Virus record (IMG/VR): IMGVR_UViG_3300043932_000190
DNA from: a virus
Reading direction: 5' to 3' (one strand)
DNA: 38,310 nucleotides
Below, piece after piece: positions 8,366 through 37,833 of the stretch. Numbering within the stretch: the first letter of the stretch is position 1; the number at the start of each line of letters is the position of its first letter. The notes under the pieces are model-generated. The model was not told the DNA's origin and made no database searches. It was given only the letters and a program-made list of their open reading frames with translations. The translations under genes were made by a program, and so were the position numbers.

Positions 8366-8588
8366 ATACCTCGTGACATACGCGCCTTATATCGCAGGTA
8401 TTATATCTGCGATGGTTGCCTATCTAAGCCTTCGAGAGAGTCAACGCAAAACCAAGCATGATGAGGCTATGGATTTGCTGGACAGGGTGAATAAAGACAA
8501 CGATAGGCTCCGCGAAGAAAATGAAGAACTGAAAAAGAAAAACTTACAGTTAACAAGAGAACTGGAGGAATTAAGATATGCAAAATGA
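8355..8588 (+). CDS. Small membrane-anchored coiled-coil protein in the lysis cassette
   Basis: 77 aa with one N-terminal TM (YIAGIISAMVAYLSL) followed by a charged coiled coil. It overlaps both neighbouring genes. Confidence 0.55.
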   Translation: MIDKYLVTYAPYIAGIISAMVAYLSLRESQRKTKHDEAMDLLDRVNKDNDRLREENEELKKKNLQLTRELEELRYAK

Positions 8589-8850
8589 ACTACTTCAGGT
8601 ACTAGCAATTGCGGTTGTCATCGCACCGATCTCCACTGGTTTCACCGAAATCTACAAACGATATACACCTGCAGAGGGCAAACTGCTACCTGTTCTATCA
8701 ATTGTAACGGGCATTTTACTGGCCTGCGTTTGGGCGCTGGCTTTTGACCATCTTTCCTTAATCGGTGCTTATGCGCTGGCAGGACTGCTGTCAGGACTTG
8801 CGTCCGTTGGTGTTTATCAAATTGTTAAACCAAACGAGGAGGTAAAATAG
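8578..8850 (+). CDS. Holin
   Basis: 90 aa with 2-3 TM helices and a charged C-terminus, immediately upstream of the endolysin. RBS ggagga. Confidence 0.7.
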   Translation: MQNELLQVLAIAVVIAPISTGFTEIYKRYTPAEGKLLPVLSIVTGILLACVWALAFDHLSLIGAYALAGLLSGLASVGVYQIVKPNEEVK

Positions 8851-8851
8851 T

Positions 8852-9904
8852 ATGAGTTATAGCATCAATAAAGAATTTGCTTTGGGTGCAAATGAAGGCT
8901 CATCGCAAGTAGCTAATCGGCTTTACATTATCCTACATGATGTTGGTGCGGAATCTGGCGCGCGTGCAAATGCCGCTTACTTCAAAAACAATATTGCTGC
9001 TGAAGTTGCTTATACGGCATTTGTTGTTGGTGATGGCGGTCAGGTTTATCAGGTCGGCGAACCTGGTTATGTACAGTGGGGCGCAGGAACAGTGGCAAAT
9101 GCCAATAGCCCAGTCCAAATTGAATTAGCTCACACGAGTGATCCCGAGACCTTCAAGAAAGATTATGCCGTCTATATCGAGCTTGCACGTGATATGGCTG
9201 CTAAATATGGCATTCCGACTAGTTTGGACACTGGCGGTGCTGGAACGCCGGGCATCAAGTCTCATTTGTGGGTAACGCAGCATATTTGGGGTGATCACAC
9301 TGACCCTTATGGTTATCTAGCTCGATGGGGCATTACAAAGGAAAAACTAGCGGCCGACCTTGCTAATGGAACAACAACCGTAGATGCATCTACGAGCGCA
9401 CCAGCAGCACAAACGGCGCGTCCGCAAGCAGCTGTATCTCGTAAGGTCAATGTGACTTACGGCTTGCACTTGCTCGGTGGCGGTTGGCTTGATGAAGTCA
9501 CTAATTTTGGCTCTGGTGACAATGGATTTGCGGGATTGCCTAATCACCAACACGATCTGCTCTACATTCGCGTTGATCATGGTAGCGTTAAGTATCGAGT
9601 TCACACGGTTAAGAGTGGTTGGCTGCCTTGGGTAACCAAAGGTGATCGCAATGACACGGTCAACGGTTGCGCCGGTATTGCTGGTGAAGCGATTGATGGA
9701 GTCCAGATTGTGTTTCTCACCCCCGCCGGTGAGCCATACCAGCAAGCGTATTACCGCAGTCAGACGACACAACGGGCTGGCTGGCTCAACGTTGTGTGTG
9801 ATGATGGCACGAGTTTACCACAGTACACAGACACATACGCCGGCATGTTTGGAGAACCGCTTGATCGTTTGCAAATCGGTATTATTTCGATCAGTCCATT
9901 TTAA
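8852..9904 (+). CDS. Endolysin: N-acetylmuramoyl-L-alanine amidase (Amidase_2/PGRP-like) with three C-terminal GW-containing wall-binding repeats.
   Basis: The N-terminal region (YIILHDVG...ELAHTS...HLWVTQHIWGDHTDP) looks amidase_2-like. The C-terminus holds three repeats of about 45 aa with a conserved GWL core. RBS gaggaggt. Confidence 0.8.
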   Translation: MSYSINKEFALGANEGSSQVANRLYIILHDVGAESGARANAAYFKNNIAAEVAYTAFVVGDGGQVYQVGEPGYVQWGAGTVANANSPVQIELAHTSDPETFKKDYAVYIELARDMAAKYGIPTSLDTGGAGTPGIKSHLWVTQHIWGDHTDPYGYLARWGITKEKLAADLANGTTTVDASTSAPAAQTARPQAAVSRKVNVTYGLHLLGGGWLDEVTNFGSGDNGFAGLPNHQHDLLYIRVDHGSVKYRVHTVKSGWLPWVTKGDRNDTVNGCAGIAGEAIDGVQIVFLTPAGEPYQQAYYRSQTTQRAGWLNVVCDDGTSLPQYTDTYAGMFGEPLDRLQIGIISISPF

Positions 9905-17622: not shown

Positions 17623-18528
17623 ATGGTAAATGCAGTGAATTTGAAACGAACGCCAGTTAAGACGTTGGTGCAGAGCGATGCAATTCAGAAACGTTTTCGC
17701 GAGGTACTAAAGGACCGAGCGCCACAGTTTCTGAGTTCAGTGGTTAGTGTGGTCAATGAAAATAAGGATTTACAAGGTGTTGACCAGATGAGCGTGCTCA
17801 ATTCGGCATTGGTGGCGGCATCCGTCAACCTGCCGATCAACCAAAATCTCGGGTTCTTCTATCTTGTTCCTTACAAAGGTGTTGCTCAGGCGCAGATGGG
17901 CTATAAGGGCTACATTCAATTGGCTCAGCGGTCGGGCCAGTATCAGAAGCTCAATGCCATTCCAGTTTATGCTGACGAGTTTGGCAGCTGGAATCCACTG
18001 ACCGAAGAGCTGGATTACACGCCACATTTTGAAGACCGCAAGGCGAGTGATAAGCCGGTCGGATACGTCGGTTTCTTCAAACTCTCAAATGGCTTTGAAA
18101 AAACTGTGTATTGGAGTCGGAAACAGATCGAAGCTCACCGTGATCGATTCTCGAAAAGCGCCAGTAGTTCCCAATCACCATGGAAGTCTGACTTTGACGC
18201 GATGGCTTTGAAGACAGTGCTGCGGAATTTGATCACCAAATGGGGACCGATGACCACGGATATTCAAAAAGCGAATGATGCCGATGAAAGCGACTTGAAA
18301 AATAATTTGACTGTCGACTCAAGCGATCCTAAAGACGTAACACCTGGCTCATCCTTGGAACAATTTCTTGGTGCGACTGATCAGCAGCAAGAACCAACCA
18401 CCGAACCGGCAACCAAGAAAAAGTCTGAGGAGGTGAAGCACGATGAACTCAAGCCAGACGTTATCAACGACCCCAACGAGCACACCAAACAAACCAGCCT
18501 CACCGACGACGACCTTCCATTTGACTGA
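17623..18528 (+). CDS. recT: RecT-family single-strand annealing recombinase
   Basis: RecT-like core (..SVLNSALVAASVNLPINQNLGFFYLVPYKG..QMGYKGYIQLAQRSGQY..) with an acidic C-terminal tail. Confidence 0.85.
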   Translation: MVNAVNLKRTPVKTLVQSDAIQKRFREVLKDRAPQFLSSVVSVVNENKDLQGVDQMSVLNSALVAASVNLPINQNLGFFYLVPYKGVAQAQMGYKGYIQLAQRSGQYQKLNAIPVYADEFGSWNPLTEELDYTPHFEDRKASDKPVGYVGFFKLSNGFEKTVYWSRKQIEAHRDRFSKSASSSQSPWKSDFDAMALKTVLRNLITKWGPMTTDIQKANDADESDLKNNLTVDSSDPKDVTPGSSLEQFLGATDQQQEPTTEPATKKKSEEVKHDELKPDVINDPNEHTKQTSLTDDDLPFD

Positions 18529-19312
18529 TGCCAACTACTACAACAAGGAAGCCAACCAGCATTTTCAATCGGCATCAATGTTCAAGGAGTTCTTATCATG
18601 TGAAGCCCGGGCCATGGCTATGCTGGCAGGCTGGGAACCTGCGAACAAAGATCCAACGGCCTTGTTGGCCGGAAATTATGTGCACAGTTATTTCGAGAGT
18701 AAAAGTGCTCATGAACAGTTCATCCAGGACAATCCGGTGATGTTCACGAAGACGGGTAGTCTAAAGGCCGCTTACAAGACGGCTCAAACCATGATTGATG
18801 CGTTAAAGGACGACAAGCACTTCATTGAGGCCTATATGCCTGGGGAAAAAGAGATGATTCTCACTGGTGATATTGGTGGCACTCAATGGATGGGCAAGTT
18901 GGACAGTTATATTCCTGGTCAGTCGTTCTTCATGGACATCAAAACCACTCAGGATATTCATAAACGCTTCTGGGTTCCAGACGGTCGGCATGGTCACTGG
19001 GGTTCATTTGTAGAAGCATACAACTATCCATTACAGATGGCCGTTTATCAAGAGCTGATCTTTCAGGCTTACGGTGTGCGACCTGAACCCATCATTGTTG
19101 CTGTGACCAAGCAAGAGCCGCCCGACAAGGCATTCATCGCAATCCCGCAAGAATATCTGGATACGGCAATGAGTCAACTGCTGGAAGCACAAGACCGAAT
19201 CGAAGCGGTGCGAAGTGGGCAGATCCCACCTAGGCGTTGCGAGCAATGCGACTACTGCCGAGCAACCAAACATCTGGGACAGATCATCAGTATGCACGAA
19301 TTGATTGAGTAG
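18443..19312 (+). CDS. PD-(D/E)XK (Cas4-like) exonuclease with a probable Fe-S cysteine cluster
   Basis: GKLD...FMDIKT motif. Cysteines: C in FLSCEARA plus CEQCDYC near the C-terminus. Strong RBS gaggaggtg before ATG 18443, which lies 86 nt inside recT. Confidence 0.75.
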   Translation: MNSSQTLSTTPTSTPNKPASPTTTFHLTDANYYNKEANQHFQSASMFKEFLSCEARAMAMLAGWEPANKDPTALLAGNYVHSYFESKSAHEQFIQDNPVMFTKTGSLKAAYKTAQTMIDALKDDKHFIEAYMPGEKEMILTGDIGGTQWMGKLDSYIPGQSFFMDIKTTQDIHKRFWVPDGRHGHWGSFVEAYNYPLQMAVYQELIFQAYGVRPEPIIVAVTKQEPPDKAFIAIPQEYLDTAMSQLLEAQDRIEAVRSGQIPPRRCEQCDYCRATKHLGQIISMHELIE

Positions 19313-29058: not shown

Positions 29059-29706
29059 ATGGCCAAAGGGAAGTATCAAGAATGGCAGACACCAGAGCGG
29101 TTGGCATTGCTTGAAGGCTGGGCGCGCGATGGGTTAACTGACGAACAAATAGCCCACAACATCGGCGTTCGTAGAGAAACTTTGTATGCGTGGAAAAAGG
29201 CACATCCTAACATTTCTAACGCCCTAAAGAAAGGCAAGGAAATTGTTGACCAAATGGTCGCTGGCTCGCTGATTAGGCGTGCGCTGGGAATGACAGTGAC
29301 CAATACCACGTATAAGATGGTTCCTCTCCGAGAGGACGTGCTGGAAGCAAGACGAACACGCTGGCGTAATGAATATCAGCTGGATCATCCTGAGTTGACT
29401 CGTAAGCAACTAGTTCAGGCCTCAATTGAGAATGTCCCAACTTATGAAAAAATCCCGATCATTGTTAATGAAAACGAGTTGGCGCCGGATACCTCAGCAC
29501 AAATATTCTGGTTGAAGAATCGGAAGCCTGAGTTATTCCGTGATCAAGCGTTCAAAGGCCTTAATGAAGCGCAGGCTCGCAAGGCCAAAGCCGAAGCGGA
29601 GATTGCTGAAGCCAAGGCCAAACGTGAGACCAGCGAAGACACGAGCAACATCACAATCAACATCAAGCCAATTCAGCAAGGAGGAGACGATGACGGTGCA
29701 AATTAA
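29059..29706 (+). CDS. terS: Terminase small subunit
   Basis: 215 aa. N-terminal HTH-like region (LLEGWARDGLTDEQIAHNIGVRRETLYAWKK). Immediately upstream of, and overlapping, terL. Confidence 0.8.
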   Translation: MAKGKYQEWQTPERLALLEGWARDGLTDEQIAHNIGVRRETLYAWKKAHPNISNALKKGKEIVDQMVAGSLIRRALGMTVTNTTYKMVPLREDVLEARRTRWRNEYQLDHPELTRKQLVQASIENVPTYEKIPIIVNENELAPDTSAQIFWLKNRKPELFRDQAFKGLNEAQARKAKAEAEIAEAKAKRETSEDTSNITINIKPIQQGGDDDGAN

Positions 29707-30988
29707 CATTGATCTGAATTCAATCGTCCCCAAAGCTTACGCACCGCTTTACAATGACAGAACACGCTACCTGACGTACAAGGGCAGTCGTGGGTCGCGC
29801 AAGTCGTTCTCCGTTGCCGAAGATGTGATCATGCAAGTCATCTTGCACCCTTACGTCAATTGGATTGTGCTTCGCCAATACGCATATACGAACAAGGATT
29901 CGACGTATTCAACTATCCAACAAGCAGCATTCAGGCTGGGCGTTTACGACCTGTTCAAGTTCACAATATCGCCGCTAGAAATCACCTATAAGCCAACCGG
30001 CCAGAAGGTGTTTTTTCGTGGCATGGACAAACCACTGGCCGTTACTTCATTGCAACCAACAACCGGCGTGCTTGCTCGAGCATGGTGGGAAGAAGCATAT
30101 GAGCTGAAATCGCTAGACGCATTCAAGACCGTCGAAGAAACAATGCGTGGTGAGATCGATGATCCTGATGGCTATTACCAGTCGATTATCACATTCAACC
30201 CGTGGAGCGATCAGCACTGGCTTAAACGTGAGTTCTTCGACGAAGACACAAAGAACCCGCGTTCAAAATCGTTTACGACCACATACAAGGACAACCCATA
30301 TCTTGACGATGATTACATCGCCAGCCTCAAAGACATGGTTAAGCGCAACCCTAATCGTGCCCGTGTTGCCGTATATGGTGACTGGGGCATTGCAGAAGGT
30401 CTTGTGTTTGACGGACTGTTTGAGCAGCGTGATTTCAGTATGGAAGATATCGCAGCATTGCCAAAAGCGGTTGGCCTTGACTTTGGTTTCAAACATGACC
30501 CAACAGCAGGCGAGTTCATGGCAATCGATCAGCAGAACAGAGTCGTATATATCTACGACGAGTTTTATCAGCAGGGAATGCTAACACAGCAGATTGCTGA
30601 GGCTATTGGGCAGCATAAGGGATACGGCTTGCAGATAACGGCTGATAGTGCCGAGCAGAGGCTCATATCCGAATTGTCAGGTGTATATGGTGTGCCAAAC
30701 ATCATTGGTGCTGGCAAAGGCAAAGACAGCGTCTCGCAAGGTATCCAGTACATGCAGTCTTACCATTTTGTGGTTCATCCCCGTGTTAAAGGACTACTGG
30801 AAGAATTCAATACGTACGTTTATTCAAAAGACAAGTTCGACAACTGGACGAACACGCCAGTCGATGCTAATAACCACGCGATCGATGCATTACGGTATGC
30901 GATGGAACCGTTTATGTTCCGGACTGCCGGCCATTACATGAGCAACCAAGAACGCATTCAGACAATCAAAAATTTAGGATTGGGGTGA
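29690..30988 (+). CDS. terL: Terminase large subunit
   Basis: Start refined to ATG 29690 (MTVQINIDL..) with aaggagga RBS. Walker-A-like YKGSRGSRKS. 432 aa, followed by the portal gene. Confidence 0.85.
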   Translation: MTVQINIDLNSIVPKAYAPLYNDRTRYLTYKGSRGSRKSFSVAEDVIMQVILHPYVNWIVLRQYAYTNKDSTYSTIQQAAFRLGVYDLFKFTISPLEITYKPTGQKVFFRGMDKPLAVTSLQPTTGVLARAWWEEAYELKSLDAFKTVEETMRGEIDDPDGYYQSIITFNPWSDQHWLKREFFDEDTKNPRSKSFTTTYKDNPYLDDDYIASLKDMVKRNPNRARVAVYGDWGIAEGLVFDGLFEQRDFSMEDIAALPKAVGLDFGFKHDPTAGEFMAIDQQNRVVYIYDEFYQQGMLTQQIAEAIGQHKGYGLQITADSAEQRLISELSGVYGVPNIIGAGKGKDSVSQGIQYMQSYHFVVHPRVKGLLEEFNTYVYSKDKFDNWTNTPVDANNHAIDALRYAMEPFMFRTAGHYMSNQERIQTIKNLGLG

Positions 30989-30989
30989 C

Positions 30990-32510
30990 ATGATGGATCC
31001 ATTTGAAGAATCAAACTTACTGTATCAAGAAGACATTACGAACCTCACTCCGGATCGGATCATGAAGTTCATTTTCCATCATCACGAGTATCAGCTTCCA
31101 CGGCTAAAAAAACTTGACCGATATTACAAAGGACAGAATGAGGGAATTCTACAGCCGCAGTCACGGCGCATTGAAACCGGCAAGTCAGACCATCGCGCCG
31201 TTCATTCATTCGGCAAGTATATCGCTGACTTCCAGACGGCATATTCTGTTGGTAATCCGGTTAATGTGAAGCTTGATGATGATGACAAGCGACTCGATCA
31301 GATTACACGCGTGAACGACCTGGACGCACTCAACTATGATCTGTTTCTAGACATGACACGCTATGGGCGTGCCTACGAGTATGTTTACTACGGTAGTGAC
31401 TCAATCGAGCATTGCGTTCGTCTTGATCCGCTTGACACGTTCGTCATCTACTCGCTTGATGTTGATCCGCAACCGATCATGGCTGTTCGCTATCATTCGG
31501 TAGAGTTGGTTGACGAGAATAACAAGACAATCATCGAAATTATTCCCGAAACATGGACAGCGAAAGAACATGACATTTACAAGCCGACTACGGTTGGCGG
31601 AGCAATGTATTTGGATCACAGCGAGATAATTCGCGTGTTTCCTGTTGTGGAGTATGACAACAATCGATTCCGAACTGGAGACTTTGAGCATGTTATCTCA
31701 CTGATTGACCTATACGATTCGGCACAGTCCGATACCGCCAACTACATGACTGACCTCAACGATGCGCTGCTAGTAATTAGTGGTGATATTGACGCTCTAT
31801 TTAATGGCAGCACGTTGCTTAGCGGTGTTGACCCCAATGATCCCGAGGCGATGAAAAAGCTCGCAGAAGACAAACTAGATCTGATTAAGGAGCAGAAAGA
31901 CGCCAATATGCTGTTGCTCAAGTCTCGAATGACAGCAACAGGTCAGCAGACGAGCGTTGACGCAAAATACATCAACAAAGAGTATGACGTCAGTGGCACC
32001 GAAGCATACAAGAAGCGTGTTGCCGAAGACATTCACAAGTTCAGCCACACACCGGACTTGACTGACAGCAACTTTGCAGCCAATGTCTCTGGCGTCGCGA
32101 TGAAGTACAAGCTGCTAGGTACTGTTGAATTAGCAGCAATCAAGCGGAGAATGTTTGAGAAGTCATTGTATCAGCGATATTCAATCATCTACGCACTTGA
32201 CAAGAGCGTGTCAGGTGGCATGAAGACGGACCCTAATACGATTCAGTTCACGTTCCGCGACAATCTACCTACGGACGACATCACACAAATTACAGATCTT
32301 GTTGCTGCTGGCGCAGTGTTACCGCAAGAATATCTCTACAGATTTGCACCGGGTGTCACTGACCCACAAGAGATCACTAACATGATTGCCAAACAGCGAG
32401 CAGACAGTGAGTACAGCGAGGATTTGACTAACAATGACGAAAACACCCAAGGAACGGATCAAAGCGTTAGCGGACAAACAGGACAGGAAACACCGCCAGA
32501 TAGCAAGTGA
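30990..32510 (+). CDS. Portal protein (SPP1 gp6-like)
   Basis: 506 aa, positioned after terL, acidic C-terminus. Confidence 0.8.
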   Translation: MMDPFEESNLLYQEDITNLTPDRIMKFIFHHHEYQLPRLKKLDRYYKGQNEGILQPQSRRIETGKSDHRAVHSFGKYIADFQTAYSVGNPVNVKLDDDDKRLDQITRVNDLDALNYDLFLDMTRYGRAYEYVYYGSDSIEHCVRLDPLDTFVIYSLDVDPQPIMAVRYHSVELVDENNKTIIEIIPETWTAKEHDIYKPTTVGGAMYLDHSEIIRVFPVVEYDNNRFRTGDFEHVISLIDLYDSAQSDTANYMTDLNDALLVISGDIDALFNGSTLLSGVDPNDPEAMKKLAEDKLDLIKEQKDANMLLLKSRMTATGQQTSVDAKYINKEYDVSGTEAYKKRVAEDIHKFSHTPDLTDSNFAANVSGVAMKYKLLGTVELAAIKRRMFEKSLYQRYSIIYALDKSVSGGMKTDPNTIQFTFRDNLPTDDITQITDLVAAGAVLPQEYLYRFAPGVTDPQEITNMIAKQRADSEYSEDLTNNDENTQGTDQSVSGQTGQETPPDSK

Positions 32511-33382: not shown

Positions 33383-33934
33383 ATGGCAGAAGAAACACAA
33401 AATCAGGAAAAAACTGAATCAACTCAGACAACTGAAACGACCACTCAGGCACCTATCACATATACGCAGGCTCAACTTGACAGCGAGGCCGATAAGCGTG
33501 CAGCTAAGGCGCTTGAAACGGCCAAGGCAAAATGGCAAGAGGAACAGGCTAAGGCGCTTGAAGACGCAAAGAGCGAAGGTGCCCGTCTTGCTAAGATGAC
33601 CGAAGATGAAAAGGCCAAAGAACTCGAGAAACAGCGACAGGCTGAACTCGATAAACGTGAAGCTGAACTCAATCAGCGTGAATTGTCGACAAGCACGAAG
33701 TCATTGCTCGTTGACAAAGGACTGCCAACTGATTTTGCTGGCTCTCTGGTTGCCTTGGGTGATGCTGACAAGATCAAGACGGCTGTTGAAAATATTCAGA
33801 AGACAATTCAGGAAACGGTCAATAAGCAGGTTGAAGCCAAGTTGCAAACTGACCCGCCTAAGAATGGTGCTTCTGCCCTTGATGGTGCCGACGATCCATT
33901 CAAGAAAATCATGGCACAATACAAGAAAAAATAG
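33383..33934 (+). CDS. Scaffolding protein
   Basis: 183 aa, highly charged and helical (E/K/A/Q-rich), RBS caggagga, directly upstream of the capsid gene. Confidence 0.75.
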   Translation: MAEETQNQEKTESTQTTETTTQAPITYTQAQLDSEADKRAAKALETAKAKWQEEQAKALEDAKSEGARLAKMTEDEKAKELEKQRQAELDKREAELNQRELSTSTKSLLVDKGLPTDFAGSLVALGDADKIKTAVENIQKTIQETVNKQVEAKLQTDPPKNGASALDGADDPFKKIMAQYKKK

Positions 33935-33947
33935 GAGGTAGCTAATC

Positions 33948-34868
33948 ATGGCTACAGAAAACAATCTTTTACCGGTACGGCTTTATCAAAAGGAATTCAT
34001 TGCCCTCATGCAGACGGTGTTTGGGGTTCAGAGCCAGTTCACGCCAACGTTCGGCGACTTGCAGGCAATCGATGGTGTTCAGAACAGCGCTATTGCATTC
34101 AGCGTAAAGGCTAACGATGTGCCGGTTGCCGTTGGGGAGTACAGCACCGACGCCAACACCGCGTTCGGAACGGGTACCAGCAACTCTAACCGGTTTGGCC
34201 AGATGCAGGAAATCGTATATGGCGATGTTGATGTGCCTTACGACTACGGCTGGAGTTTCAACGAAGGCATCGACCAGTTCACCGTCAATAACGACCTGAA
34301 CGCTGCTGTTGCCGACCGCCTTAACTTGCAGGCTCAGGCTAAGACCCGCCTGTTCAACAGCAAGCTCGGCGCATATCTTGCCGCAAGTGCAGCGGCTGAC
34401 CTTGGTGCGGTTGATGACGTCAACAAGGTCTTTGAAGAGGCGTCTGAACGATACACCGACTTGGAAGTTGTTGTTCCGATTCGTGCGTATGTCACGGCCG
34501 AGGTATACAACGCCATCATTGACCATCAGTTGGTAACCAGCTACAAAGGTTCCGCTGTGAACATCGATGAGAACGGCATCGTGCGTTTCCGCGACATCGT
34601 TGTTACCAAGACGCCTACCCGTTACATGGCTGGTAAGGCCATCATCTTCTCACCTGATAACATTGGTCGAGCATTTACCGGTATCAACGTTGTTCGTACC
34701 ATTCAGACCCCAGACTTTGCCGGGTATGCGCTCCAAGGTGCTGGCAAGGCTGGTCAGTGGATCAGCGATGACAACAAGAAGGCCGTCTTCACTGCTGGTA
34801 CGTCGGCAACTACCACGACTTCCACCGTGGCACCATCTACTACCACGACTACGACAGCTCAAGGCTAG
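33948..34868 (+). CDS. Major capsid protein with a C-terminal poly-Thr tail
   Basis: 306 aa, RBS aggaggt, positioned after the scaffold gene. Ends ...FTAGTSATTTTSTVAPSTTTTTTAQG. Confidence 0.8.
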   Translation: MATENNLLPVRLYQKEFIALMQTVFGVQSQFTPTFGDLQAIDGVQNSAIAFSVKANDVPVAVGEYSTDANTAFGTGTSNSNRFGQMQEIVYGDVDVPYDYGWSFNEGIDQFTVNNDLNAAVADRLNLQAQAKTRLFNSKLGAYLAASAAADLGAVDDVNKVFEEASERYTDLEVVVPIRAYVTAEVYNAIIDHQLVTSYKGSAVNIDENGIVRFRDIVVTKTPTRYMAGKAIIFSPDNIGRAFTGINVVRTIQTPDFAGYALQGAGKAGQWISDDNKKAVFTAGTSATTTTSTVAPSTTTTTTAQG

Positions 34869-34935
34869 TTAATTGATCTAAGTCGCCTTCGAAATGGGAC
34901 AGTACGGGAAACCGGGCGGCTGATTGGAGGACAGA

Positions 34936-35814
34936 ATGAAGCTTATTTTGTGTCAACCCGCTATTAAGAGATTCGAGTGGGAACTAGAAGTCTGCCTAAC
35001 CAATCTGCAAAGTGTCGGGTTTGACATGAAAGATGTCGTTTTGCTCTTCACTGTGCATGATTCTAAGGTGCCAGAAACGCTTGCAAACAAATATGGAGTA
35101 GAAGTGCACACGTATACCGACAAGCGCTCAGACAAGCAATATATTCCATCTGTGAAGCCTTGGCTTTGGTGGCAATATCTTGCGGAAGATCCTGAACGTG
35201 AAAACGAGGACTACTTTTACTTTGACAGCGATGTAATCTTCCGAAAACGGCCAGACTTTCGCAAGCTGAAAGCAAGGCCTGATCGTTGGTTGTGCAGCAA
35301 CACATTGAGCTATATCAGCGTTGACTATATTAAGCAGTGTGAACACGGAGAAGAAATCCTGAAACGCATGGCCGATATTGTCGGAGTCACGTTGGCCTCG
35401 CTTGAAACGATCAACCACAATTCTGGCGGTGCTCAATGGATCATCAGTCACCCGTCAGCAGAATACTGGCGCAAGGTGTATGCCGACAGCAACCGACTGT
35501 GGCAGTATTTGCAGACAGTCGATAGCAACATCCAGAAATGGACTGCTGAAATGTGGTCGCAGCTTTGGAACATGATGTACTTCAACATCGGGCCCGTCAT
35601 CAGTGATGAGCTCGATTTTTGTTGGGCTACTGATCCCATCAAGCGATGGAATGAAACTAAGATCATGCACAACGCTGGTGTGACTGTGAATGACAAACGT
35701 TTGTTCTTCAAAGGACAGTATGTCAATCGAACGCCGTTTGATGATGATCTTAGTTTTGTCGACAAGTCGAGGTGCTCATACAAGTATGCTCAAGCAGTAA
35801 AGGCGGTGAAATGA
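34936..35814 (+). CDS. Putative glycosyltransferase-like protein (DxD motif) within the head module
   Basis: Start refined to ATG 34936 (MKLILCQPAI..), RBS ggagga. YFYFDSDVIF is a DxD-type motif after a beta-alpha-beta-like N-terminus. Its stop overlaps the next gene's start (ATGATG). Confidence 0.45.
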   Translation: MKLILCQPAIKRFEWELEVCLTNLQSVGFDMKDVVLLFTVHDSKVPETLANKYGVEVHTYTDKRSDKQYIPSVKPWLWWQYLAEDPERENEDYFYFDSDVIFRKRPDFRKLKARPDRWLCSNTLSYISVDYIKQCEHGEEILKRMADIVGVTLASLETINHNSGGAQWIISHPSAEYWRKVYADSNRLWQYLQTVDSNIQKWTAEMWSQLWNMMYFNIGPVISDELDFCWATDPIKRWNETKIMHNAGVTVNDKRLFFKGQYVNRTPFDDDLSFVDKSRCSYKYAQAVKAVK

Positions 35815-36173
35815 TGGCTGATTCAGACACAAACGCAAAGATTTTGGCAAGTGTGAAGCTTCGCATCGGTTTGACCGATACACTGCAAGACGACTTGCTA
35901 AACGACCTTATTGATGACGTAAACGCTCATGTGCTGGCTTATATCAACCAAGACGGTGTAATCAACCAGACAGTGCCAACTGCTGTTACATGGGTAATCA
36001 AAGACGTTGTGGTTAAGATGTACAACCGCAATGGTGACGAAGGCAAAACTGCCAGCAGTGAGGGTAATGTCTCAAACACATGGGAAACCATTGATTTATC
36101 TCAGTATGCTGACGGCCTTGATGTTTATCGCGAGTCATCACAAAGCCGAAGACCGGGGATGAGGTTTGTGTAA
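35811..36173 (+). CDS. Head-tail connector protein (gp6/gp15-like)
   Basis: 120 aa (MMADSDTNAKILASVKLRIGLTD..LLNDLIDDV..). Position and N-terminal pattern are typical of head-tail connector / DNA-packaging proteins. Confidence 0.65.
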   Translation: MMADSDTNAKILASVKLRIGLTDTLQDDLLNDLIDDVNAHVLAYINQDGVINQTVPTAVTWVIKDVVVKMYNRNGDEGKTASSEGNVSNTWETIDLSQYADGLDVYRESSQSRRPGMRFV

Positions 36174-36469
36174 TGAGATACAACAATCGAATCACCCTCA
36201 TCAGGAAGTCACCGCCGGCTGATCCATTGCATGATAGGCCGACAGATACGCGCGAGACGGTCACTTGCCTGACAATCCCAATCACCAGTGCACAGGAACT
36301 TTCTGTATACGGTCTTGTGAACACGATGGCCTATGAGATTCACGTGAAGAATCCTGTATTGCCTGTGAACGAGATCGAACTTGATGGCGTCAAGTGGACA
36401 ATAAATAAGACATTTGTAAATCGCAAGTCAACCGTGTTCATCGTGTCTGGAGGTGCAAGCAATGGCTGA
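36173..36469 (+). CDS. Head closure / head-tail adaptor protein
   Basis: 98 aa (MRYNNRITLIRKS...), TAATG overlap. Confidence 0.65.
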   Translation: MRYNNRITLIRKSPPADPLHDRPTDTRETVTCLTIPITSAQELSVYGLVNTMAYEIHVKNPVLPVNEIELDGVKWTINKTFVNRKSTVFIVSGGASNG

Positions 36470-36836
36470 TATTAACGTCACGTGGACTGGCCTAAGCAGT
36501 CTCATGGAACAGATTGGTGCTACGGCAGCAGAAACGATTGAAGCTGCCTCATCGGCAATGAAGACAACCACAGGCCAAGTGCAAGCCCAAGCAAAACAAA
36601 TTGCACCGAAACGAACGGGGTTCATGGCAAACAACATCAGTGTTGAGCCAGTCAAGAAGACAGCTACGTCTGTGACGGGAACTGTCAATGCAAAAGCTGA
36701 CTATTCCTCCTTTGTTGAGTTTGGAACTTACAAAATGTCAGCAGAGCCGTTTATTAGGCCGGCCGTATCTGCTGGGCAATCATTGTTCATCAAAACGACA
36801 ATGGACAAGCTGAAGGAGGCAGCCACATTCAAATGA
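36462..36836 (+). CDS. HK97 gp10-like tail-completion / neck protein
   Basis: Start refined to ATG 36462, RBS ggaggtg. The pattern ..IAPKRTGFMANNI...YSSFVEFGT..M.AEPFIRPA is typical of the HK97 gp10 family. Confidence 0.7.
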   Translation: MADINVTWTGLSSLMEQIGATAAETIEAASSAMKTTTGQVQAQAKQIAPKRTGFMANNISVEPVKKTATSVTGTVNAKADYSSFVEFGTYKMSAEPFIRPAVSAGQSLFIKTTMDKLKEAATFK

Positions 36837-37198
36837 CACTCTCGGAATGGTATGAAGATGTTCAAACACAATTGACTGCTGACGGTCTTAACCCTGTATT
36901 CATTCAGCCGGACGCTAAGAGCACACTGCCATTAGTTTTCGTAAACGTTCACGTTGATGCCGATATGTCATCCAAGACAGCGACGCTTGCGAGCGTTGGT
37001 CAGCAGATTGACATATACGACAGTATCGACACTCCGCCGGCTGAATGGGAGGACTTCGTTCGCAATGTTAAATGGTCACTCAGCAAGGTGACACGATGGC
37101 AGTCATTAACGGCATCTAATTCAATCGACACAAGCATGGGCGATAGCAGTCCGCTGCGCCGCTGCATGCTCCTCATTACTCTAGAAGGAGATTATTGA
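36833..37198 (+). CDS. Tail terminator / tail-completion protein
   Basis: 121 aa, ATGA overlap, immediately upstream of the major tail protein. Confidence 0.55.
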   Translation: MTLSEWYEDVQTQLTADGLNPVFIQPDAKSTLPLVFVNVHVDADMSSKTATLASVGQQIDIYDSIDTPPAEWEDFVRNVKWSLSKVTRWQSLTASNSIDTSMGDSSPLRRCMLLITLEGDY

Positions 37199-37200
37199 TT

Positions 37201-37833
37201 ATGGCAGATCCAGTAAACAACGGTATCGAATTTGTAAAAGATACCCCATATCGTGGCAAAGATGTTTGGTATTTCATCCAATCAACTAACCCAGCAGTAG
37301 CACCAATTGGCAGCCCTGCAATCTTGCCGGCTCACCAAGAGTCTGGCGATACAAGCATTGAAGGTGATTCTCTTGATGAACAGACCAAGATGGGCCGTAT
37401 CATTGCCGCATCCACTAACGAAGATAGCATTGAGCTGACAACCTACATGGTTCCGGGTGATAAAGCGCACGACATCATCATTGATGCCAAGCATGAAGGC
37501 CGTCAGGTTAAGGTATGGCGTGTCATTGTTGACTCACGTCTTGCAGTTGTTGAGGGCGACCACAAAGCCTATCCAGCGATGTTTGGTTACGGTGTTGTTG
37601 ATAGTGCCGACATCTCTGATGAAGACAGTTTCTCTGAGATCGACTTCACCCTGAACATCATCGGCAAACTTGCGGATAAGAACGAAGATGGGACGCCGGG
37701 CACGTTCCCGTTATCCGACAATCAAGTTGCAATGCTCGATCAGCTCTATTCATTCGAACGCCCAGGCGAAAAAGAAGGAGAGTTTGCAGATGGCTCTGCA
37801 ACGTCAACCACCACAACCACTTCTCACGCTTAA
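37201..37833 (+). CDS. Major tail (tube) protein with a C-terminal poly-Thr tail
   Basis: Start refined to ATG 37201 (MADPVNNGIEF), RBS gaaggag. 210 aa. Positioned before the chaperone genes. Ends ...FADGSATSTTTTTSHA. Confidence 0.75.
   Translation: MADPVNNGIEFVKDTPYRGKDVWYFIQSTNPAVAPIGSPAILPAHQESGDTSIEGDSLDEQTKMGRIIAASTNEDSIELTTYMVPGDKAHDIIIDAKHEGRQVKVWRVIVDSRLAVVEGDHKAYPAMFGYGVVDSADISDEDSFSEIDFTLNIIGKLADKNEDGTPGTFPLSDNQVAMLDQLYSFERPGEKEGEFADGSATSTTTTTSHA

Follow-up and report, generated by a model that had tools for sequence, protein, structure and literature searches.

What is a gene resembling a glycosyltransferase (GT) doing between the major capsid protein gene and the head-tail adaptor gene of a siphovirus, directly behind a capsid protein that ends in a stretch of threonines? 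The question is raised by IMG/VR record IMGVR_UViG_3300043932_000190, 38,310 nucleotides of viral DNA which we call the window, in which an initial annotation had suggested that the product of the open reading frame (ORF) at 34936-35814 might O-glycosylate proteins of the virion. We addressed it computationally, from sequences, gene order, a predicted fold, conserved motifs and patterns of co-occurrence and mutual exclusivity. The outcome makes it likely, in our judgement, that the ORF encodes a soluble cytoplasmic enzyme of the GT-A fold which glycosylates the poly-Thr tags of capsid and tail-tube subunits.

The capsid protein indeed ends in a Thr-rich tail, GTSATTTTSTVAPSTTTTTTAQG. By codon count its last 23 residues contain 12 Thr and 3 Ser, so that the figure of 15 given at first holds for hydroxyl residues and not for Thr. 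The similar tail that had been noticed on the tail-tube protein was found at its C-terminus, DGSATSTTTTTSHA. The homologous core of the capsid protein stops near residue 281 of 306. With a Thr background of 6.75% of 11,774 residues (69 ORFs, a greedy non-overlapping set covering the window), about 0.02 runs of five Thr (T5) would be expected in the window by chance, which puts the two tails well beyond chance. Runs of four Thr (T4) or longer occurred at these two C-termini and otherwise only in one dubious 70-aa ORF (18528-18740, + strand; TTTT at residues 3-6), which is probably a chance run or no real gene. The Thr codons of the tails are mixed (ACG, ACT, ACC, ACA), indicating selection at the protein level, and an origin as DNA microsatellites or a slippery repeat was rejected on this ground.

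The pairing of gene and tails, for which relatives had been proposed as the touchstone, was borne out by the survey. Among 82 loci with a close homolog, each locus covering the relevant genes had poly-Thr C-tails on the capsid protein, the tail-tube protein or both, and no further ORF in them was flagged for such a tail. All 87 distinct close gene-bearing loci had poly-Thr C-tails, here too confined to the capsid protein, the tail-tube protein or both. In the full count, which includes three re-fetches of loci already counted, tails were present in 89 of 90 gene-bearing loci, the single miss (L077) being an ORF-calling artefact, versus none of 34 loci that encode these capsid and tail families without the gene (0/460 ORFs). 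The corresponding Fisher p of 1e-29 is uncorrected for relatedness; the weight is carried by repeated independent contrasts.

Such contrasts were found within the genus of the nearest sequenced phage, Lacticaseibacillus phage R3.3 (genus Coetzeevirus), which is 84% identical in nucleotide sequence across the head-tail stretch. A homolog of the window capsid was found in 147 phage records. Of these, R3.3 alone carries the GT-like gene too, and in all of them the alignment was restricted to residues 1-281, just short of the tag. Capsids of same-genus phages lacking the gene (Silenus, ATCC8014, cIP1, phiJL-1) end in FTASPKA or similar, and their tail tubes show no T4 run. Likewise, Weissella WCP_01 and 26 metagenomic relatives devoid of the gene showed FTASPKA-like capsid ends and tail tubes free of T4 runs. 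The tail tube of gene-lacking relatives ends in GEFSDAVGSEDTPDSGTA or has a Big_2 domain there.

The gene adjoins two unrelated structural modules in phages of the L. casei group. In the iLp84/PLE3/R9.1 type, a different capsid protein of 346 aa ends in VLVPTTTTTTTSK and the tail tube in GETTTTTTTSK. The capsids of iLp84 and R9.1 are about 96-98% identical to those of iLp1308 and CL1, which end in VLIPKP; the latter two phages are without the GT-like gene, and their tail tubes end in GTAPAKGGSGTGA. Judged from their sequences, these near-isogenic phages differ by exactly the GT-like gene and the tails. Broken copies of the gene were also seen: it appears split or frameshifted in phiFL2A and phiFL1C (two BLAST pieces), and Enterococcus faecalis EnGen0061 has fragments of 122+195 aa and of 248 aa. 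These copies are apparent natural knock-outs.

What gene-lacking relatives have instead are Big_2 immunoglobulin (Ig)-like domains, at the same C-termini or in an ORF of 59-76 aa in the capsid-adaptor slot (Pfam matches with E from 1e-8 to 7e-15). A hidden Markov model (HMM) made from those segments detected a Big_2 domain in 27 of the 34 gene-lacking loci versus 0 of the 90 gene-bearing ones. Ig-like domains at such positions face outwards from capsids and tails, so that the poly-Thr tags, too, occupy exposed display points. By sequence, tags and Big_2 domains look like alternative decorations. In Silenus (L083), no Ig-domain ORF is annotated between capsid and adaptor; the Big_2 HMM matched a stop-to-stop frame of the locus, and this match could be a frameshift-extension product, as frameshift-extension Ig-like domains are known on phage structural proteins.

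The tags recurred on proteins of diverse origin. After trimming of the tags, the tagged proteins fell into 18 families mutually without BLAST-detectable similarity. Enterococcus phiFL1A has a tag on both proteins, the capsid and the tail tube, and its GT-like gene lies 3' of the tail-tube gene. The tag is on the tail tube only in Lactococcus bIL285, on the capsid in E. faecium 4995_1, and on the head-decoration protein, the tail tube and the portal in Clostridium phiCTP1. In prophages of Listeria grayi, of a halophilic Bacillaceae and of Anaerorhabdus, a member of the Erysipelotrichia, the capsid and the tail tube are the only tagged proteins. In the 86-kb lytic Enterococcus phage VPE25, runs of at least five Thr (T5+) occur in three ORFs genome-wide, including the tail-tube C-terminus DTTTTTTTTTTAGK; the C-terminal peptide of its tail protein SCO93497.1 is VYGATTTDTTTTTTTTTTAGK. 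Poly-Thr was further observed in VPE25 on a 73-aa ORF (L126:8525-8746) and a 392-aa head-module protein (L126:34228-35406), and in phiCTP1 the portal tract lies near the C-terminus (L089:1434-3023). The tag is thus not confined to capsid and tail-tube subunits.

Some phages of the iLp84/PLE3/R9.1 type encode an extra protein of 125 aa, directly upstream of the GT-like gene (L002:4620-4997 in iLp84, also L062-L068 and L077). It consists of an N-terminal part of about 65 residues followed by some 60 residues of near-pure poly-Thr (TTTTTTVKPTTTTTTTVKPTTTTTTTTTTTT...), occupies the slot of a 59-aa Big_2 ORF in GT-lacking relatives and is labelled 'major tail protein' in GenBank. It may be a dedicated glyco-decoration protein. 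Another observation concerned the last residues of the tags, which are often the same on capsid and tail tube of one genome, for example TTTTTTTTSA, TTTTTTTQA or TTTTTTTSK on both (L213:5708-6886 and 8372-8998, L078-L082, L002). Such agreement may point to a recognition element common to both tags or to gene conversion of one by the other. It was seen in 22 of 52 unique tail combinations compared with 11.9 in shuffles, an excess that is confounded by clade structure and serves as a hint only.

A distant branch was retrieved with a profile headed by a divergent member, whereas single-sequence searches with long fusion relatives gave 3 loci. Its 82 mostly environmental loci are 33-51% identical to that member. 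A protein with a T5+ tract was present in 68 of the 82 (105 of 970 ORFs), and all 105 such proteins were encoded on the strand of the GT gene. Typically they are the product of the gene immediately upstream and carry long TTTTSTTTT linkers. One of ten upstream proteins examined was a major tail protein, the rest being without annotation. As the control set was not matched to these environments, the association is only suggestive of the pairing.

As for the enzyme itself, the ORF matched PHROG 4417, a family of 'unknown function', over residues 1-292 of 293 (E 2.2e-150). At the sequence level no match was obtained in Pfam (E<=1), NCBIfam, PADLOC or the PDB (phmmer and two profiles); PDB sequence 'hits' to SKA1, TAL effectors and a designed rhodopsin were discarded as noise. 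The family is large: Firmicutes, prophages included, gave 589 word-indexed homologs, and a profile search yielded 876 clusters (50% identity), of which 518 had an E below 1e-30. A tblastn search of 50,697 phage records located the gene in 77 sequenced phages, among them VPE25, a model phage for therapy, phages of dairy and probiotic lactic acid bacteria (LAB) and 90-kb staphylococcal phages. The only legacy name of a PHROG 4417 protein is 'prophage pi2 protein 34', and one UniRef record was automatically named 'Glycosyl transferase family 8'.

An AlphaFold model built from 44 homologs was confident (predicted local distance difference test, pLDDT, 97.1; predicted template modelling score, pTM, 0.93). 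The alternating strand/helix N-terminal half, first suspected from the letters, was seen in the model as a Rossmann-like arrangement, one alpha/beta/alpha domain whose central sheet is mixed. Foldseek against the PDB returned 311 chains at E<=1e-3, and the top 50 were all retaining GT-A enzymes with probability 1.0, so that the suspected fold was upheld. The top matches comprised UGGT (GT24), WbbM, the GT8 enzymes glycogenin, LgtC and XXYLT1, and the GT6 enzymes alpha-3GalT (alpha-1,3-GalT) and GTA/GTB; the closest fold families were GT24, GT8 and GT6 (E about 2e-8, template modelling (TM) score 0.50-0.54), with the catalytic domain of the GT24 enzyme UGGT as best match (E 2e-8, TM 0.50-0.53, 11-14% identity). 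In the viral structure library, two uncharacterised phage proteins ranked first, followed by viral GT8-type enzymes, again at probability 1.0. The DxD-type motif YFYFDSDVIF is indeed present: D97 (35224-35226) and D99 (35230-35232) come immediately after strand 92-95 of the model, the canonical GT-A position behind the fourth strand. Both Asp residues were unchanged in each of three alignments, at identities as low as 28-31%, and H245 (35668-35670), G248, F257 and K259 were likewise invariant down to 31% identity. The protein has no transmembrane segment (maximum hydropathy 1.09) and is predicted to be soluble. Longer, distant relatives carry the domain in fusions with GT2, GT7C-like, GT25-like (weak), methyltransferase or radical-SAM/SPASM domains, company that, going by these assignments, would be expected of a glycan-building enzyme.

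Neither for GT8 nor for GT24 did the searches support membership in the family. In Pfam, neither GT8 nor GT24 matched the window protein at E<=1, and Glyco_transf_8 was found in none of 44 diverse members. GT24 gave the best fold match, but no Pfam or PDB sequence match accompanied it. Compared profile to profile with genuine GT8 enzymes, the family fell short of a claim to membership: hhalign gave a probability of only 8.4% with Escherichia coli WaaO/WaaJ, which themselves match LgtC and have PDB 5gvv as a sequence relative. The sole segment so aligned placed FYFDSDVIF in register with GT8 LYLDADIIC. WaaO/WaaJ further show IHYIGPTKPW, whereas the phage H245, G248 and K259 are spaced otherwise, lack PW and lie outside the hhalign alignment. 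Weak Pfam matches concerned HPAT, a hydroxyproline O-arabinosyltransferase (3 of 44 members, best E 1.3e-4, absent in a rescan of ten members), and DUF6492 (2 of 44, E 2.8e-4, residues 36-138). In our reading, the ORF would represent a GT-A family of its own, similar in fold to GT8 and GT24.

From these elements a mechanism can be proposed. The enzyme would be produced late in infection, from the structural operon and alongside its substrates. It would bind the diphosphate of a host nucleotide-sugar via the DxD motif and a metal, with H245 and K259 probably involved, recognise the disordered poly-Thr tags and O-glycosylate several Thr per tag. Capsid and tail-tube subunits being present in hundreds of copies, head and tail of the virion would thereby become covered by a dense brush of glycans resembling mucin. 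Catalysis, and Thr as its acceptor, are what we infer from the evidence above. The donor sugar would be a hexose or N-acetylhexosamine, alpha-linked if the resemblance to retaining families holds; as the nearest folds are all retaining UDP-glucose or UDP-galactose enzymes, an alpha-linked hexose is our best guess, at low confidence. Speculatively, the coat may shield the virion against proteases and antibodies, serve hydration and prevent aggregation, or avoid non-productive binding. Gene and tags would act as one portable module, gained and lost together and alternating with Big_2 Ig-like domains. We lean, by a little more than an even chance, towards a broader proposal, in which PHROG 4417 is a widespread GT-A family that has so far gone unrecognised and forms with the poly-Thr 'glyco-tag' a self-contained, horizontally portable virion-glycosylation module of Firmicutes phages, an alternative to Ig-like domains in which the tag alone directs glycosylation of any carrier, be it capsid, tail tube, decoration protein or portal.

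Could the enzyme act on something other than the virion? A GT-A fold with a DxD motif would also suit an enzyme that modifies a host envelope polymer (wall or lipoteichoic acid, cell-wall polysaccharide) for superinfection exclusion or progeny release. Prophage-encoded teichoic-acid glycosyltransferases serve such envelope roles, the window is a phage of temperate type and many homologs reside in prophages. However, the gene is embedded in the late head-tail operon. As had been read from the ATGATG sequence, the ATG of the adaptor gene overlaps the TGA stop of the GT-like gene (35811-35816), and a promoter and terminator scan around the latter gave nothing above shuffle expectation. Stop/start overlap and lack of a separate promoter or terminator indicate that the gene belongs to the late operon and is not a stand-alone moron. 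It also occurs in strictly lytic 86-kb phages such as VPE25, and its product is without a transmembrane segment. Above all, a role at the envelope leaves the co-variation with tags on 18 structural families and the near-isogenic contrasts unexplained, and we regard it as quite improbable. A moron or lysogenic-conversion GT was rejected in view of the capsid-adaptor embedding, the missing promoter and terminator, the soluble product and the lytic-phage occurrence (no search was aimed at Gtr-like partner genes, and most other ORFs of the window are unannotated), and an anti-phage defence element because PADLOC gave no family at E<=1. Glucosylation of phage DNA bases against restriction deserves hardly any credence. 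DNA-modifying phage glycosyltransferases are well known, but the position in a structural operon and the co-variation with protein tags do not fit them, and the fold matches are protein- or glycan-directed GT-A enzymes and not DNA glucosyltransferases. The DNA-metabolism region of VPE25, moreover, contains genes labelled 'b-gt beta glucosyl transferase' and 'nucleotide sugar synthetase-like protein' (L125:32328-34941), which lie apart from the head-tail PHROG 4417 gene and are probably a DNA-modification system.

It is also conceivable that the tails are unmodified hydrophilic spacers or brushes, low-complexity Thr linkers without glycosylation being in existence, and that the GT-like protein is a non-catalytic chaperone, an assembly factor or a hitch-hiker. 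No glycan has been demonstrated and the fold match reaches a TM of about 0.5 only, which this explanation would accommodate. The DxD motif and the His, Gly and Lys residues are nevertheless strictly invariant across 31-96% identity, as is typical of an active enzyme, and the domain is fused to other sugar-modifying enzymes. A non-catalytic role also leaves the co-variation of tags across unrelated proteins and the near-isogenic pairs unexplained. The gene position varies, after the capsid gene or the tail-tube gene, yet the association persists, which argues against hitch-hiking. We therefore consider the spacer explanation unlikely. Several observations do weigh against glycosylation of the tags by the PHROG 4417 enzyme. 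The co-occurrence counts lack phylogenetic correction, and near-duplicates account for many of the loci. No tail is present on the capsid in bIL285, phiCTP1 and VPE25, E. faecium 4995_1 has a degenerate tail-tube tag, and strictly C-terminal tails were found in only 14 of the 82 loci of the distant branch. The fold similarity is moderate (TM 0.50-0.54, root-mean-square deviation 5-8 A), sequence-level membership was obtained in no CAZy or Pfam GT family, and the hhalign probability for GT8 was low. A single GT gene is present here, compared with several GTs and a methyltransferase described for mycobacteriophages (PMC11600133). Glycosylation of the virion is thus a prediction with computational support, from sequence and model.

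The features of the head-tail module are collected in Table 1.

Table 1. Coordinates of the head-tail features of the window and grounds for their assignment
Feature	Position	Strand	Basis or remark
Siphovirus head-tail module	3' third of window	+
Terminase	29540-30988	+	by length and place of the gene
Portal	30990-32510	+	by length and place of the gene
Scaffold	33383-33934	+	DUF4355
Major capsid protein, 306 aa	33948-34868	+	PHROG 840 'major head protein', E 7e-118
Capsid poly-Thr C-terminal tag, GTSATTTTSTVAPSTTTTTTAQG	34797-34865	+	proposed O-glycosylation acceptor
Intergenic spacer with ribosome-binding site GGAGGA (34926-34931)	34869-34935	+
GT-A-fold glycosyltransferase-like ORF, 292 aa, 34.6 kDa	ATG 34936 to stop 35814	+	PHROG 4417, fold model
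Head-tail adaptor gene	35811-36173	+	Phage_connect_1, E 5e-14; PHROG 132, E 3e-28
Three small ORFs placed in head-tail module	36173-36469, 36453-36836, 36833-37198	+	position
Major tail (tube) protein	37195-37833	+	PHROG 238 'major tail protein', E 3e-47; true start probably ATG at 37201
Tail-tube poly-Thr C-terminal tag, DGSATSTTTTTSHA	37789-37830	+	proposed second acceptor

Some side observations concerned hosts. A protein identical to that of the ORF, MCI1912955.1, is annotated as 'hypothetical protein' on a 41,965-bp contig of a Schleiferilactobacillus harbinensis metagenome-assembled genome. The 90% cluster of the ORF protein has 744 members, mainly from L. paracasei, and the nearest phages as well as most cluster members belong to the Lacticaseibacillus casei/paracasei group. 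This would mean either a wider host range or mis-binning of the S. harbinensis contig. The host label of 'Aeromonas phage AS1' (PV831789.1), Aeromonas salmonicida, looks doubtful: its capsid shares 72% identity with capsids of Coetzeevirus phages from Lactobacillus plantarum, and its genome, 38.2 kb, is of similar size.

With most subscription journals outside the search, we found no literature report of such a system for Firmicutes phages, PHROG 4417 or 'prophage pi2 protein 34', in agreement with the initial impression that it was new for Lactobacillaceae phages. Published work on an Oenococcus phage, on S. aureus phages, on adsorption (a review) and on VPE25 proteomics does not mention virion glycosylation, and one study of ten unrelated phages, which were not checked for the PHROG 4417 gene, observed no glycoprotein staining (PMC12894461). 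The only tailed-phage precedent found was the actinobacteriophage work (Freeman et al. 2023, Cell Host Microbe 31:1216). If our proposal is true, virion glycosylation would no longer be an actinophage peculiarity and would be common in LAB, enterococcal, staphylococcal, listerial and clostridial phages, groups with a bearing on dairy fermentation, on probiotics and on phage therapy. Such a coat could alter antibody neutralisation, protease resistance, interactions with mucus or matrix, and virion stability. The proposal would also account for a conserved 'hypothetical' gene amid many head-tail operons, and a short poly-Thr tag with one soluble enzyme would make a minimal system for engineered glycan display on phages and proteins.

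The candidate module can be compared with several known systems. Retaining enzymes of GT24, GT8 and GT6 are its best structural matches, and in both the DxD follows the fourth strand. The invariant His...Gly...Lys of the phage proteins resembles the HxxGxxKPW of the GT8 enzymes WaaO/WaaJ, although the spacing is different. The substrates of glycogenin, UGGT and GlyE are proteins or glycoproteins. Serine-rich repeat adhesins of streptococci and lactobacilli are glycosylated in the cytoplasm by GtfA/B and then by GT8-type enzymes such as GlyE (5gvv). This system is also found in Firmicutes and likewise relies on soluble cytoplasmic GTs acting on Ser/Thr-rich low-complexity tracts; its substrates, however, are secreted with the help of an accessory Sec system and have hundreds of Ser-rich repeats, whereas here virion subunits, Thr runs of 5-12 residues and a single enzyme would be involved. 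Big_2 decorations share the attachment points of the tags and are, like them, accessory and exchanged between close relatives, but they are folded domains that need no enzyme. Giant viruses (chloroviruses, mimiviruses) use cytoplasmic GTs of their own to glycosylate capsid or fibrils at the virion surface, and viral GT8-like proteins were among our structural matches; they differ by their eukaryotic hosts, multi-enzyme pathways, other acceptor chemistry and the lack of a poly-Thr terminal tag.

The actinobacteriophages come closest in architecture. The glycosylation sites described by Freeman and colleagues are said to be C-terminal Ser/Thr-rich extensions. According to PMC11600133 and PMC13313380, three tandem GTs and an O-methyltransferase modify capsid and tail-tube proteins there. 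The likeness to mycobacteriophages, drawn from the outset, holds for this architecture, in which a phage-encoded GT is paired with C-terminal extensions rich in Ser/Thr on the capsid and tail-tube subunits, but not for the enzyme, which is unrelated in sequence: none of the 77 tblastn matches in the 50,697 phage records came from a phage of Mycobacterium, Gordonia or Rhodococcus. Unlike the actinobacteriophage system, the one proposed here has Firmicutes hosts, a gene inside the head-tail operon and a short, near-pure poly-Thr acceptor.

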